From an uncultured delta proteobacterium (GTDB lineage Bacteria; Myxococcota; UBA727; VGSZ01), in the NCBI GenBank assembly GCA_963775425.1, contig CAVZJB010000004.1:128001-192000 (forward strand): a stretch of 64,000 nt of DNA, in the 5' to 3' direction. This document shows positions 23,911 through 52,789 of the stretch, in pieces (within the stretch, counting starts at the first letter, position 1; each line of letters opens with the position of its first letter). Position numbers and translations under genes: made by a program. The notes beneath the pieces were generated by a model. The model worked only from the letters and a program-made list of their open reading frames with translations. It did no database searches and was not told where the DNA came from.

Positions 23911-24294
23911 TCAGTCCGAGTCGCCGGAGATCGGCTTCTCCGACCCCACCAGCTCGAGGATCGAGATGGTGGCGTTGTCACCGCGGCGGATTCGCGACTT
24001 GGTGATGCGGGTGTAGCCGCCGTTCCTCGTCTTGAACCGGGGCGCGATGTCGGAGAAGAGCTTCCGGAGCACTTCCTGGTCGCGGATGTCCCGGTGCGCG
24101 AGCCGCCGCGAGTGAAGATCGCCGGCCTTTGCCAGCGTGATCAGCTTCTCGGCGACGATGCGCAGCTCCTTGGCCTTCTGGTCGGTGGTCTCGATGCGCT
24201 CGTGACGGAACAGCGACGTGGCCATGTTGCGAAACATCGCCTGCCGGTGCGCCGACGTGCGCGAGAACTTACGACCTGCTTTCAAATGACGCAT
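23911..24294 (-). CDS. rplQ: 50S ribosomal protein bL17
   Basis: [23 protein letters not shown]...RNGGYTRI. Confidence 0.99.
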
Positions 24295-24319
24295 GGGGTG
24301 GTCCTTACAAAGGAGAGGT

Positions 24320-25411
24320 TCAGCCCTCGAGCTCCGCGCCGTCGTCGTCGTCGAGGTCGTCCTCGCCGCCGAGCGTGTCGCGCGAGATGACGGGGCCCGA
24401 AACGACGCTGGGCTTGGGGAGACCCTGCTTGGGCGGCCAGTTGTCGAGCTTCATGCCGAGGCTCAGGCCCATCTCGGAGAGGATCTCCTTGATCTCCTTG
24501 AGCGACTTGCGGCCGAAGTTCTTGGTCTTGAGCATCTCACTCTCGGTCTTCTGCACGAGATCGCCGATGTACTTGATGTTGGCGTTCTGCAGGCAGTTGA
24601 ACGAGCGCACCGACAGCTCGAGCTCGTCGACGGAGCGGAGCAGGTTCTCGTTGATCTTCTCTTCCTTGATCTCCGGCTCGGGGAGCTCGGGCTCCACTTC
24701 CTCGGAGAAGTTGATGAAGATGGAGACCTGCTCCTTCATGATCTTGGCGGCGATGCCGACGGCGTCCTCGGGGGAGACGGCGCCGTTGGTCCACACCTCG
24801 AGCGTGAGCTTGTCGTAGTCGGTCTGCTGGCCGACGCGGGCGTGGGTGACGTTGTAGTTGACCTTCTCGATGGGCGAGAAGAGCGCGTCCATCGGGATGG
24901 TGCCGACGCTCTGGCCTTCCTGGCGGAACTGCGTGGCGGGCACGTAGCCGCGGCCGCGCTTCACCGTGAGCTCGGCCTTCATCGTGCCGCCCTCGGCGAC
25001 GGTGGCGATGTGATGATCAGGGTTCAGGATGGTGACGGTCTCGTCGTGGACGATGTCCCCGGCCTTCACTTCCTTCGGGCCCTGCACGTCGACGCGGAGG
25101 GTCTTGCCGTCGCCCGCCGTGTTGATCTTGAGGTCGACTTCCTTGAGGTTGAGGATGATGTCGGTGACGTCTTCCTTGACGTCCGGCAGCGCCATGAACT
25201 CGTGCTGCGCGCCGTCGATCTTCACGGCGGTGAAGGCCGCGCCCTGCAGCGAGCTGAGGAGGATGCGGCGCAGCGAGTTGCCGAGGGTGACGCCGTAGCC
25301 GCGCTCGAGGGGCTCCGCGACGAACTTGCCGTACGTGGCCGACAGGGTGTCGCGGTCGACGACGAGGGTCTTCGGACGGATGAGATCGCGCCAGTTCTTG
25401 TGCAGGGACAT
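24320..25411 (-). CDS. rpoA: RNA polymerase alpha subunit
   Basis: [45 protein letters not shown]; acidic C-terminal tail. Confidence 0.99.
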
Positions 25412-25502
25412 CTTGCTTCTTGCCTTTCGAGCAGCCCCCTCGGAACACCCCGGCCGCATGCCGGTGAGCCCCATGGGGACGACAGGAGAACGGTTCTAAC
25501 GA

Positions 25503-25886
25503 CTAGACGCGGCGCCGCTTGGGCGGCCGGCAGCCGTTGTGCGGGATGGGGGTGACGTCGCGGATGAGGGTGACCTTGAGGCCGCTGTTGGCGATGGCGC
25601 GCAGGGCGCTCTCACGACCGGCGCCGGGGCCCTTCACGCGGACCTCGACGGCCTTCATGCCGTGATCCATGGCCTTGCGGCAGGCGTCCTCGGCGGCCAC
25701 CTGCGCGGCGAACGGCGTGGACTTGCGCGAGCCCTTGAAGCCGCGGGCGCCACAGGTCGACCACGACACCGTGCCGCCCGTGGGATCGGTGATGGTGACG
25801 ACGGTGTTGTTGAAGGAGGCGAACACGTGCGCGACGCCGATGGCGACGTTCTTCTTGACGCGCTTTTTGCCCTTGGGAGTTGCCAT
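25503..25886 (-). CDS. rpsK: 30S ribosomal protein uS11
   Basis: [35 protein letters not shown]. Confidence 0.99.
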
Positions 25887-25932
25887 ATGAGGAGCTCTTC
25901 TTTTTCAGCGAGGGAAAGGGATGGCGACGGTG

Positions 25933-25987
25933 GCGGTTCGTGAAGCGGTTCGTCGTGACGCGGTTCGCGAAGCGGTTCGCGAAGCGG
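25933..25987. repeat. Intergenic tandem repeat of ~12 bp (GCGGTTCGCGAA-like, about 4 copies) between rpsM and rpsK
   Basis: gcggttcgtgaa gcggttcgtcgtgac gcggttcgcgaa gcggttcgcgaa gcgg. Confidence 0.8.
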
Positions 25988-49640: not shown

Positions 49641-49711
49641 GGTCTCTCTCCTCGACTCTCTCGAATCTCAAATCTCGATGGGGGTGGAACTACTCGGCAC
49701 AAACGGGCGGA

Positions 49712-51814
49712 TCAACCACCGTTCGCCTTGGCGATGATCTGCTCGGCGATGTTGGCGGGGACGGCGTCGTAGTTGCCGAACTCCATGGTGTAGCTGGCGC
49801 GCCCCTGGGTGCGCGAGCGGATGGCGTTGGCGTAGCCGAACATCTCGGCCAGCGGCACGATGGCGTTCACGACCTTCATGCCCGCGCGCTCGTCCATGCC
49901 CTGGACCTGGCCGCGGCGGGAGTTGAGGTCGCCGATGACGTCGCCCATCCACTCGTCGGGCGTCACCACCTCCACCTTCATCATGGGCTCGAGGATGACG
50001 GGCTTGGCCTTCTGGGCCCCCTCCTTGAACGCCATGGAGCCGGCGATCTCGAACGCGTTCGCGTTGGAGTCGACGTCGTGGTAGCTGCCGTCGAACACCT
50101 CGACCTTGACGTCGACGACGGGGTAGCCCGCGCGGATGCCGCGCAGGAGCGCGCCCTCCACGCCCTTTTGGACGGCCGGGATGAACTCGCGGGGGATGGA
50201 ACCGCCCACGGTGCTGTTTTCGAACTCGAAGCCCTTGCCGGCCTCGTTGGGCGCGATGCGCAACCAGACGTGGCCGTACTGGCCGCGGCCGCCGGTCTGC
50301 TTGACGTACTTGCCTTCCTGCTCGACGGACGAGGTGATGGTCTCGCGGTAGGCCACCTGCGGCTTGCCGACGTTGGCCTCGACGCCGTACTCGCGCTTGA
50401 GGCGGTCGACGATGATCTCGAGGTGGAGCTCGCCCATGCCGGAGATGGTGGTCTGGTTGGTCTCCTCGTCGGTCTTCAGGCGCAGCGACGGGTCCTCCGC
50501 GGCCAGGCGGCCGAGGCCCACGCCCATCTTCTCCTGGTCCACCTTGGTGCGCGGCTCGATGGCCAGCGTGACGACGGCGGGAGGCACGGTGAGGCGCTCG
50601 AGCACCACGGGCTTGTCCTCGTCGCACAGGGTGTCGCCGGTGACGCACTCGACGCCGATGGCGGCGGCGATCTGTCCCGCGTAGACCTCCTCAATCTCCT
50701 CGCGCTTGTCGGCGAACATGCGCACGATGCGGCCGATGCGCAGCCGGCGCCCGGTGCGCGCGTTCAGCACGCTGGCGCCCTTCTTCAGCACGCCGGCGTA
50801 GACGCGCACGAAGGTGAGCTGGCCGAACTTGTCGTTGATGAGCTTGAACGCGAGCGCGGTGAGCGGCTCGTCGTCGTCGGCGTTGCGGACAATCTCTTTG
50901 GTCTCGTCCTTCAGGTCCTTGCCCTTGAGCGGCGGGATGTCGATGGGCGCGGGCAGGAAGTCGATGACGGAGTCGAGGAGGTACTGCACGCCCTTGTTCT
51001 TGAACGCGGAGCCGCAGAACGTGGGCACGAGCTTGAGGCCGATGCAGCCCTTGCGCAGGGCGCTCACGAGCTCCATCTCGGTGATCTCCTGGCCGTCCAG
51101 GAACTTGGCAGCGATGTCGTCGTCGACGTCGGCGCACTGCTCCACGAGCTTCTCGCGGTACTCGGCGGCCTGTGCCTTGAGGTTGTCCGGGATGTCGATG
51201 AGGTCGTAGGCCGCCCCCATCGTCTCGTCCTTCCAGGTGATGCCCTTCATGCGCACGAGGTCGACGAGGCCCTTGAAGCCCGCCTCGGCCCCGATGGGCA
51301 GCGTGAGCACCGCGGCGTTGGCCTTGAGGCGCTCCTTGATCATGTCGACGCAGCGGAAGAAGTTGGCGCCGGTGCGGTCGAGCTTGTTGACGAAGCACAT
51401 GCGCGGGACGCCGTAGCGGTCCGCCTGACGCCACACCGTCTCCGACTGCGGCTCCACGCCCGCGACACCGTCGAACACGACGCACGCGCCGTCGAGGACG
51501 CGCAAGGAGCGCTCCACCTCGATGGTGAAGTCCACGTGTCCGGGCGTGTCGATGATGTTGATCTGGAACTTGGGCGACTTGGGGTCCTGGCGGCGCTGCC
51601 AGTGGCAGGTGACGGCGGCGGAGGTGATGGTGATGCCGCGCTCGCGCTCCTGCTCCATGTAATCGGTCGTGGTCGCACCGTCGTGGACCTCGCCAATCTT
51701 GTGGGTCATTCCCGAGTAATAAAGGATGCGCTCCGTGGTGGTGGTCTTGCCGGCATCGATGTGCGCGATGATGCCGATGTTCCGGGTGCGCTCGAGGGGG
51801 TACTCGCGGGGCAT
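49712..51814 (-). CDS. fusA: Elongation factor G
   Basis: [35 protein letters not shown]. Confidence 0.99.
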
Positions 51815-51894
51815 GACTTCAACCTTCCATGTCTGTCAGAGAGCTCACGGCGCGCGCAGCAGCGGGCGCCGCCCCTAGAAAAGGGATGCTTGAT

Positions 51895-52365
51895 TCACCA
51901 GCGGTAGTGCGCGAACGCCTTGTTGGCCTCGGCCATGCGGTGCGTGTCCTCGCGCTTCTTCACGGCGCCCCCGCGGCCCTGGGCAGCGTCGAGGATCTCG
52001 TTGGCCAGGCGCTCCATCATGGTGCGCTCGCCACGCTCGCGGGCGGCGTCTCGCAGCCAGCGCAGGCCGAGCGCCACGCGACGCTCCGGACGCACCTCGA
52101 CGGGCACCTGGAAGTTGGCGCCGCCGACGCGGCGGCTCTTCACCTCGACGGCCGGCTTGATGGCGTCGAGGGCGCGCTTGAAGACCTTCAAGGGCTCTTC
52201 CTTGGAGCGGTCCTCCACGAGCGAAAACGCCTTGTAGACGACGCCTTCACCGGCGGACTTCTTTCCCTCGAACATCAGCACGTTCACGAACTTCGTGACG
52301 AGCCGGTCCTGGTACTTCGGGTCCGGGTTGACCTTGCGCTTGGGAACTTCACGACGACGAGGCAT
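51895..52365 (-). CDS. rpsG: 30S ribosomal protein uS7
   Basis: [30 protein letters not shown]. Confidence 0.99.
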
Positions 52366-52417
52366 TTTTCATTCTCCGAGGTGGGGGACGCGGCCCCGAC
52401 CTACCACTGGGGACGCC

Positions 52418-52789
52418 CTACTTGGGACGCTTGGCGCCGTACTTGGAGCGGCTCTGGCGGCGGTTGTTGACGCCGACGGCATCGAGGGTGCCGCGGATGA
52501 TGTGGTAGCGGACGCCGGGGAGATCCTTGACGCGGCCGCCGCGGATGAGGACCACGGAGTGCTCCTGCAGGTTGTGGCCCTCTCCCGGGATGTACGTCGT
52601 GACTTCGAGGCCGTTGGTCAGACGGACGCGGGCGACCTTGCGCAGCGCCGAGTTCGGCTTCTTGGGCGTCGTGGTGTACACGCGGGTGCACACGCCGCGC
52701 TTCTGCGGGCACGCCTTCAGGTGCGGCGACTTGCTCTTCTCGACGAGCTGGGTGCGTCCGTGGCGAACCAGCTGGTTAATGGTCGGCAT
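52418..52789 (-). CDS. rpsL: 30S ribosomal protein uS12
   Basis: [30 protein letters not shown]. Confidence 0.99.

Follow-up and report, generated by a model that had tools for sequence, protein, structure and literature searches.

Dispersal of rplC, rpsN and rpsD from the ribosomal protein gene row of an uncultured Myxococcota bacterium, probably an inherited layout of its class

Organization of the ribosomal gene row

The DNA considered here, called the window throughout, is a stretch of 64,000 nucleotides (nt) corresponding to C4:128001-192000 (contig CAVZJB010000004.1) of the 8.26-Mb, 18-contig and 94.6% complete assembly of an uncultured bacterium of the Myxococcota. It carries a str-S10-spc-alpha ribosomal superoperon in which the genes for L3 (rplC), S14 (rpsN), S4 (rpsD), IF-1 (infA) and Map (map) are missing from their usual slots, and which is interrupted by two insertions. 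The row spans 52,789 to 23,911 on the minus strand and reads S12, S7, EF-G, EF-Tu, S10, L4, L23, an insert of 8.7 kb, L2, S19, L22, S3, L16, L29, S17, L14, L24, L5, S8, L6, L18, S5, L30, L15, SecY, Adk, an insert of 2.1 kb, L36, S13, S11, RpoA and L17 (Table 1). All the remaining expected genes are thus in conserved order on one strand, the row being broken at rplW|rplB and at adk|rpmJ. With about 72% G+C in the window, six-frame lists of open reading frames are full of spurious frames; genes were called through Pfam scans of the candidate frames together with third-position G+C (GC3), and the relocated genes were confirmed with NCBIfam equivalog models and their cut-offs.

An earlier reading of this DNA made without database searches (the sequence-only reading) had described three unusual junctions, and these are exactly as it claimed. 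Between rpsJ and rplD there are 10 nt (48025-48034) and no rplC, and between rplE and rpsH another 10 nt (33776-33785) and no rpsN, so that neither the rpsJ-rplC-rplD nor the rplE-rpsN-rpsH contiguity exists here; rpsK and rpoA, the latter starting at the methionine aligned with its relatives, are separated by 91 nt (25412-25502) that contain no rpsD. Because all three gaps are shorter than the genes for L3 (about 730 nt), S14 (at least 186 nt) and S4 (about 610 nt), remnants of these genes cannot be present; that reading, too, had seen none. Pfam scans likewise found neither map nor infA between adk and rpmJ in the window, and both insertions in the row were confirmed, one placing non-ribosomal genes at rplW|rplB and the other a kinase gene at adk|rpmJ. 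The absence of Map holds for the secY-adk slot but not for the window, since a type I Map-like gene is encoded on the other strand some 3 kb upstream of rpsL. Its coding sequence is divided between two frames, with a stop where they meet; the C-terminal 175 residues by themselves score 203 bits on TIGR00500, and the gene could be a pseudogene or reflect an assembly indel.

Table 1. Positions of the genes and other features discussed (window coordinates, unless a contig or locus is named)
Feature	Position	Strand	Basis and remarks
rpsL (S12)	52789-52418	-	Pfam; str-operon part (48450..52789)
rpsG (S7)	52365-51895	-	Pfam; str-operon part
fusA (EF-G)	51814-49712	-	Pfam; str-operon part
tuf (EF-Tu)	49640-48450	-	Pfam; str-operon part
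rpsJ (S10), 102 residues	48343-48035	-	Pfam Ribosomal_S10 1.1e-37; junction sequence
rplD (L4)	48024-47389	-	Pfam Ribosomal_L4 8.4e-63
rplW (L23), last gene ahead of the S10-operon break	47372-47061	-	Pfam Ribosomal_L23 6e-32
8.7-kb insert, rplW|rplB	47060-38365	both	Pfam; GC3 frame analysis
DUF4215 protein (insert)	46886-45687	-	Pfam
Gluconate 2-dehydrogenase subunit 3-like protein (insert)	45421-44444	-	Pfam
GMC oxidoreductase (insert)	44507-42714	-	Pfam
Response regulator with DUF4388 and 90-nt coding repeats (insert)	42713-40329	-	Pfam
90-nt (30-residue) tandem repeats of the preceding	41400-42300	-	
Pentapeptide-repeat protein (insert)	39043-40314	+	Pfam
ORF, unknown (insert)	38459-39508	+	
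rplB (L2), first gene of the detached distal part rplB-rplQ	38364-37540	-	Pfam L2_N, L2_C; start inferred from N-terminal sequence
rplE (L5), N-terminal extension of about 58 residues	34493-33786	-	Pfam; NCBIfam L5 match at residues 59-235
L5 extension	34320-34493	-	
rpsH (S8)	33775-33380	-	Pfam Ribosomal_S8 1.5e-47
adk	29447-28779	-	Pfam ADK 7.7e-53
Ser/Thr protein kinase gene (stop-to-stop frame)	26769-28736	+	Pfam Pkinase 1.6e-40; kinase domain at residues 244-507
rpmJ (L36), zinc-binding type	26701-26588	-	
rpsM (S13)	26384-26004	-	Pfam; start read from sequence
rpsK (S11)	25886-25503	-	Pfam Ribosomal_S11 1.7e-51
rpoA	25411-24320	-	Pfam RNA_pol_A_bac, RNA_pol_L, RNA_pol_A_CTD; start agrees with relatives
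rplQ (L17), cluster end	24294-23911	-	Pfam Ribosomal_L17 3.5e-39
PPC-domain frame, 971 residues	52997-55912	-	upstream neighbour of rpsL
Map-like type I gene	55620-56355 (about 55.62-56.36 kb)	+	TIGR00500
L3, single match	C5:494158-494391		NCBIfam L3_bact 252 bits (cut-off 142.9)
S14, single match	C9:151659-151817		whole-genome search
S4, single match	C7:142939-143211		NCBIfam, 247 bits
IF-1, single match	C4:617659-617850		whole-genome search
Type I Map, intact	C11:438133-438822		whole-genome search, NCBIfam
C-terminal tail of L3	L005:7982-8100	-	own genome, contig C5

Location of the displaced genes

A search of the whole assembly found one bona fide copy each of L3, S14, S4 and IF-1, all at loci unlinked to the cluster, and an intact type I Map on a further contig; the five genes lie elsewhere in the genome and none has been lost. 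They are surrounded by genes unrelated to them, which encode a TPR protein and a polyprenyl synthetase beside L3, FabH and fumarase beside S14, a histidine kinase and a MotA/ExbB-type protein beside S4, and a sulfatase at a further locus. Even inside the family of the window's genome L3 has changing neighbours, FabH and fumarase accompany S14 only in the one same-family genome checked, and a MotA/ExbB-type gene adjoins S4 in three of the four class genomes checked. As a separate observation, the stand-alone L3 extends past the bacterial L3 model by a C-terminal tail of about 38 residues in which Lys, Ala and Gly are abundant.

Distribution of the layout in the phylum

The spread of this layout was followed in 151 genomes of the phylum (150 evenly drawn plus the window's own), which were searched for L3, L4, S14 and S4, linkage to L4 being scored by a script comparing match positions. 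The class of the window's genome is represented by 38 genomes, all of one order and divided into six families, with the window's own family designated f1. Counts given below for S4 refer to the matches listed, nine of the weakest S4 matches having been neither listed nor parsed. In addition, close relatives were found through L4 among metagenome-assembled genomes titled Myxococcota, Myxococcales or Deltaproteobacteria.

In all 12 loci with such titles S10 is followed directly by L4, with no L3 between them, while the order S10-L3-L4 is found in seven of eight non-myxobacterial loci, the remaining one, titled Planctomycetota, also being without L3. In the phylum sample, L3 does not lie within 5 kb of L4 in any of the 134 genomes that have both; the two are on one contig in 25 of them (the nearest pair 5.4 kb apart and on opposite strands) and on different contigs in 109. 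In a complete genome of 8.97 Mb belonging to family f14 (G118), L3 is 58.2 kb from L4. The other two junctions are constant at the level of the class, with L5 and S8 adjacent in 30 of 30 class loci (gap of 10-143 nt) and the order L36-S13-S11-RpoA-L17 present in all 30 as well (S11-RpoA gap of 8-261 nt). S14 is linked to L4 in none of 32 class genomes against 77 of 103 outside the class, where it lies on the L4 strand at 4.7-18.3 kb from L4, that is, in the spc operon; S4 is linked in 0/29 class genomes against 60/98 outside, at 10.6-31.2 kb downstream of L4. Adk and L36 are only 77-513 nt apart in the 14 class loci in which Adk is visible, which leaves no room for map there; the gaps of 324-513 nt in four family-f1 loci were not checked for infA. 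The latter gene is unlinked in four of five phylum genomes checked, being inside the cluster only in G118. Locations of infA and map outside the cluster are common in bacteria, E. coli among them.

The sequence-only reading had attributed these absences to the lineage of the window, proposing that several translation genes were moved out of an intact cluster, perhaps for separate regulation. The loose genes do lie among unrelated genes, unlinked to the cluster, and two features of the row, the rplW|rplB gap of family f1 and the kinase gene of this genome only, are truly young. Nevertheless, L3 is unlinked in all 134 phylum genomes that could be judged, none of the class genomes sampled has S14 or S4 in the cluster, and the junctions L5-S8 and S11-rpoA do not differ among the class loci (30 of 30 for either), in genomes of 0.3-3.4 Mb as well as in those of 5-8 Mb. 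A recent, lineage-specific dismantling involving L3, S14, S4, IF-1 and Map is therefore refuted by the genome survey for L3, S14 and S4, and as an explanation of the whole it is highly improbable. What had been called the most unusual large-scale feature of the window is ordinary for its clade, the same gene order being standard across the class and, for L3, across the whole phylum.

The same recurrence bears on the possibility that a chimeric or collapsed contig produced the three junctions and the two insertions, an idea to which the draft state of the assembly, with its 18 contigs, and the nearby Map-like gene that reads in two frames lend some substance. The junctions are found in independent assemblies, in 12 loci for S10-L4, in 29 other genomes for L5-S8 and in 29 for S11-rpoA, and because they are shared in this way misassembly is excluded for the three of them. 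Furthermore, the displaced genes are intact elsewhere in the assembly, both insertions hold well-formed genes with the codon bias of the genome, and an insert at rplW|rplB is present in relatives too. The kinase insertion and the exact content of the 8.7-kb insert are known from this one assembly; taken as a whole, an artefact has next to no probability.

Three further observations were made during the survey. On the Planctomycetota-titled contig (L022:3436-4351), S10 is followed directly by L4 and the in-cluster S14 is of intermediate length and without the zinc ribbon; this is either the same displacement outside the Myxococcota or a mis-binned contig. The order to which the window's genome belongs includes a strongly reduced-genome family (G104, f2) of 0.3-3.4 Mb, one member being a single contig of 311,843 bp at 87% completeness; these genomes keep L3, S14 and S4 dispersed, and their small size is unexpected beside relatives of 5-8 Mb. 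Finally, many of the relatives' draft contigs have their start within tuf or shortly past it, 400-700 nt upstream of L4, which fits a second tuf copy breaking assemblies at that point, so that cluster contigs often start at rpsJ.

Zinc-binding and zinc-free forms of S14 and S4

The relocated S14 and S4 differ in type from the copies that relatives keep in the cluster. S14 of the window's genome has 101 residues and a single cysteine (Cys), without the CxxC...CxxC zinc ribbon, while the in-cluster copies of relatives have four Cys. It is of the long form, scoring 118.1 bits on NF006477 (cut-off 77) and 57.4 bits on the type-Z model NF005974 (cut-off 77). The in-cluster S14 of other Myxococcota has about 61 residues and the CxxC...CxxC pattern. 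Two Myxococcaceae-like genomes (G118 and G148) combine a short S14 in the cluster with a long one elsewhere; the window's S14 shares 54% identity over all 101 residues with the unlinked long copy of the 9.0-Mb genome G118, while its alignment with the short copy of that genome is confined to the final 39 residues. In G076, another of the phylum genomes sampled, a long S14 is found at about 5 kb from L4. Pairs of C+ and C- forms of uS14, the short 'type Z' and the long form of 101 residues, were reportedly described by Makarova et al. in 2001, a work that PMC3087516 cites as its reference 14.

For S4 the alignment shows that the protein of the window's genome is without all four zinc-binding Cys of the N-terminal domain, and that, together with all the stand-alone copies, it has a gap opposite a segment of about seven residues ('C..D/EKC..') of the cluster copies. 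In-cluster S4 proteins, with four Cys and this extra N-terminal-domain segment, score 97-130 bits on the Pfam model, and unlinked ones, with neither feature, 74-96 bits. Low-scoring S4 is linked to L4 in 0 of 63 cases and high-scoring S4 in 60 of 74, and the two forms occur together in nine genomes of families f14 and f23. In a maximum-likelihood tree of 20 sequences, from Myxococcota only and unrooted, the cluster type is recovered as a clade (support 100/99) and the window's S4 falls on the stand-alone side, which includes the second copy of a genome (G030) that also has a cluster copy. Comparison of the window's S4 with solved structures gave 150-180 bits for all bacterial S4 chains, the two types being scored alike.

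Two S4 forms have been reported before. Chen, Roberts and Luthey-Schulten (2009; PMC3087516) place C+ S4 within the alpha operon, with the C-(IV) form outside it, and record both forms in M. xanthus DK1622 and in Sorangium cellulosum, as well as duplicated S14, L33 and L28 in M. xanthus (Table 1 of that paper). There, genomes in which a C-(IV) gene outside the operon is the only copy are explained by its acquisition followed by loss of the C+ gene, a horizontal-transfer origin of C-(IV) S4 is proposed, and the seven-residue indel is used as an argument against translocation followed by loss of Cys.

Judged from these protein types and positions, the S14 and S4 pattern agrees with the published C+/C- replacement. 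The sequence-only reading had considered substitution by paralogs or xenologs for the displaced genes in general, naming zinc-binding and zinc-free forms of S14 and S4; this fits the long, single-Cys S14 and the Cys-free S4, the in-cluster copies of relatives having the Cys motifs. It could be objected that the resident rpsN and rpsD were simply cut out, re-inserted elsewhere and later deprived of their Cys, with no second copy involved. In favour of such a translocation, class genomes have just one S14 and one S4 apiece, the pairing of S4 with MotA/ExbB is old, having been kept in three of four class genomes checked, and the S4 tree is weakly resolved on its stand-alone side. On the other hand, phylum genomes with both forms do exist, and in these the zinc form is always linked and the Cys-free or long form always unlinked; the window's S4 also has the indel pattern of the stand-alone type, and Chen et al. 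argue against such a path for S4 by means of the seven-residue indel (PMC3087516). Translocation is therefore unlikely, and the history was most likely a replacement by an unlinked zinc-free copy, not an excision of the resident gene.

One match each was found in the window's genome for S14, S4, L31, L32, L33 and L36, so that no Zur-regulated alternative set of zinc-starvation paralogs, meaning a zinc-free and a zinc-binding copy of one protein in the same genome, is present in it. A 'zinc-free ribosome' was also considered as the full explanation and rejected: the Cys motifs are still present in L31, L32 and L36 and are missing only from L33, S14 and S4. The loci of the second S14 and second S4 of G118 have no neighbours in common with those of the window's genome, and synteny consequently gives orthology no support.

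The two insertions

The 8.7-kb insert at rplW|rplB holds six genes on both strands, and the genes of both insertions are well formed and show the codon bias of the genome. A repeat search over this insert found only coding low-complexity and tandem repeats and none, direct or inverted, at its flanks; nor were a transposase or mobile-element genes found in it. The N-terminal part of its response-regulator/DUF4388 protein consists of tandem repeats that are up to 92% mutually identical.

The break at this site is restricted to the window's family. The distance from L4 to S8 is 5.2-5.5 kb in families f2-f5, which means that rplW and rplB are contiguous there, and in family f1 it is 8-14 kb or the two genes are split over contigs. 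L23 and L2 are 2.2-6.2 kb apart in the three closest titled relatives, and in six further relatives the sequence beyond L23, about 10 kb long in most of them, shows no L2. The gap contains a pectate-lyase-like protein in two of the three relatives and an ECF sigma factor with a SIMPL protein in the third; the cargo of the window is not shared with them. The kinase gene between adk and rpmJ gave no tblastn match in 30 class loci and is absent from the four family members in which Adk and L36 are both visible. The rplW|rplB break, at the level of the family, and the kinase gene at adk|rpmJ, in this genome, are thus the only young features of the row.

A layered origin of the layout

Taken together, these data make it probable that the row represents the normal inherited layout of a class of Myxococcota, which arose in layers, and that it is the product neither of a recent dismantling nor of an artefact. 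In the first layer, at or near the root of the phylum, rplC would have left the S10 operon and become a wandering single gene, in this genome on contig C5. In the second, before the class radiated, the in-cluster zinc-binding uS14 (the short 'type Z') and uS4 (the four-Cys form) would have been lost, their role being taken by unlinked zinc-free copies, the uS14 of 101 residues on C9 and the Cys-free uS4 on C7; these copies may have originated by old paralogy or by horizontal transfer. With the resident zinc-binding genes lost and unlinked copies acting in their stead, the slots would have closed to the present 10 nt and 91 nt. A third layer would be the location of infA and map outside the cluster throughout the class. 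Subsequently the S10 operon would have been cut between rplW and rplB within the window's family, differing cargo accumulating there by genus, and the Ser/Thr kinase gene would have entered between adk and rpmJ in this genome alone.

The row would then be transcribed in at least three pieces, rpsL-rplW, rplB-adk and rpmJ-rplQ, with rplB and rpmJ presumably served by their own promoters and a separate promoter for each of rplC, rpsN and rpsD. A sigma-70 scan around both insertions gave no promoter-like sites, and terminator-like sites did not exceed the shuffle expectation, results that are uninformative at 72% G+C; no Rfam family matched the window at gathering thresholds, so that no known ribosomal protein leader was seen. 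As neither the consensus scans nor Rfam supplied a signal, the proposed transcription is read from the arrangement of the genes.

Several points weigh against this layered origin. The order of events was read from family labels, without a species tree, and outside the class S14 and S4 vary unevenly in their states, family f10 being mixed for S14 and three f14 genomes having no linked S14; the losses may have been several and independent, or the branching order may differ. The tree of S4 has no root and is poorly resolved on its stand-alone side (73/77), the second S4 copies of the Myxococcaceae are on a long branch, and these copies need not be orthologous to the window's S4. The Cys motifs kept by L31, L32 and L36 leave a simple 'zinc economy' story incomplete. 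In the 109 genomes that have L3 and L4 on separate contigs the distance is unmeasurable, and adjacency is excluded only because no contig shows both side by side. Lastly, the new operon ends show no promoter-like or terminator-like signal.

A more far-reaching proposal can be put forward only tentatively and is rather doubtful in its full extent. A deep Myxococcota lineage may have replaced both zinc-binding small-subunit proteins (uS4 C+ and type-Z uS14) by unlinked zinc-free copies before it split into genomes of 5-8 Mb and of 0.3-3.4 Mb; the dispersal of rplC, rpsN and rpsD could have uncoupled feedback at the operon level of the L4, S8 and S4 type, and rplW|rplB could serve as a recurrent landing site for foreign cargo in the window's family. 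If this deep replacement were true, the clade would offer a natural series for how far the ribosomal superoperon can be dismantled.

Comparison with known systems and significance

The canonical str-S10-spc-alpha cluster of E. coli and B. subtilis has the same order and orientation for the other 25 ribosomal protein genes and for fusA, tuf, secY, adk and rpoA, but the row of the window is without rplC, rpsN and rpsD, has no rpoBC upstream of rpsL and is interrupted twice. The B. subtilis cluster has map and infA, which are both absent from that of the window. In E. coli-like genomes the long S14 occupies the spc slot, whereas in the window's class this slot is empty and the long S14 unlinked.

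Within the phylum, other Myxococcota such as G118 (family f14) have the S10 operon of the window in that rplD comes straight after rpsJ and a lone rplC lies elsewhere. The lineage of G118 differs in having a short zinc-type rpsN, a four-Cys rpsD and infA inside the cluster, where the window's class has none of these. As regards the uS14 C+/C- pairs, the class has the long single-Cys form and its relatives the short CxxC...CxxC form in the spc slot, some of them having both. The S4 of the window's genome resembles the cases, in Alphaproteobacteria and others, of a sole C-(IV) uS4 outside the alpha operon given in PMC3087516: it is Cys-free, without the indel of the zinc form, the only copy, and located on C7 away from rpsM-rpsK-rpoA-rplQ. 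It differs from the cases described there in that its phylum still has members with the C+ copy or with both. Since other Myxococcota keep the C+ copy or both, the replacement can be bracketed inside the phylum.

The window is thus a further case of known patterns, namely an S10 operon without rplC and the replacement of zinc-binding uS4 and uS14 by unlinked zinc-free copies. A literature search of titles and the openings of abstracts found no description of rplC displacement in Myxococcota, and the available part of PMC3616713 only restates the canonical operons.

The direct importance of the layout is small. It shows, however, that a striking departure from a highly conserved gene order is here a stable clade marker and not a one-genome anomaly: rpsJ-rplD adjacency marks contigs of Myxococcota and, when combined with rplE-rpsH and rpsK-rpoA, those of the class, which is of use in binning and annotation. 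Where only the cluster contig of such a genome has been binned, automated annotation should refrain from reporting L3, S14 or S4 as missing. Moreover, the phylum displays all the uS4 and uS14 states (both forms, zinc form only, zinc-free form only) and is a convenient one in which to test the published replacement model.

Other features of the window

No tRNA genes are present in the window. The upstream neighbour of rpsL is a frame of 971 residues with a PPC (pre-peptidase C-terminal) domain, and since this frame and not rpoB-rpoC precedes rpsL, the str operon, too, is separated from rpoBC in this genome. The N-terminal extension of L5 is rich in Lys, Glu and Gly, contains KPKGES-type repeats and begins right after the L24 stop; it can be aligned in three other genomes of the family (G026, G069 and G125) and not in the rest of the class.

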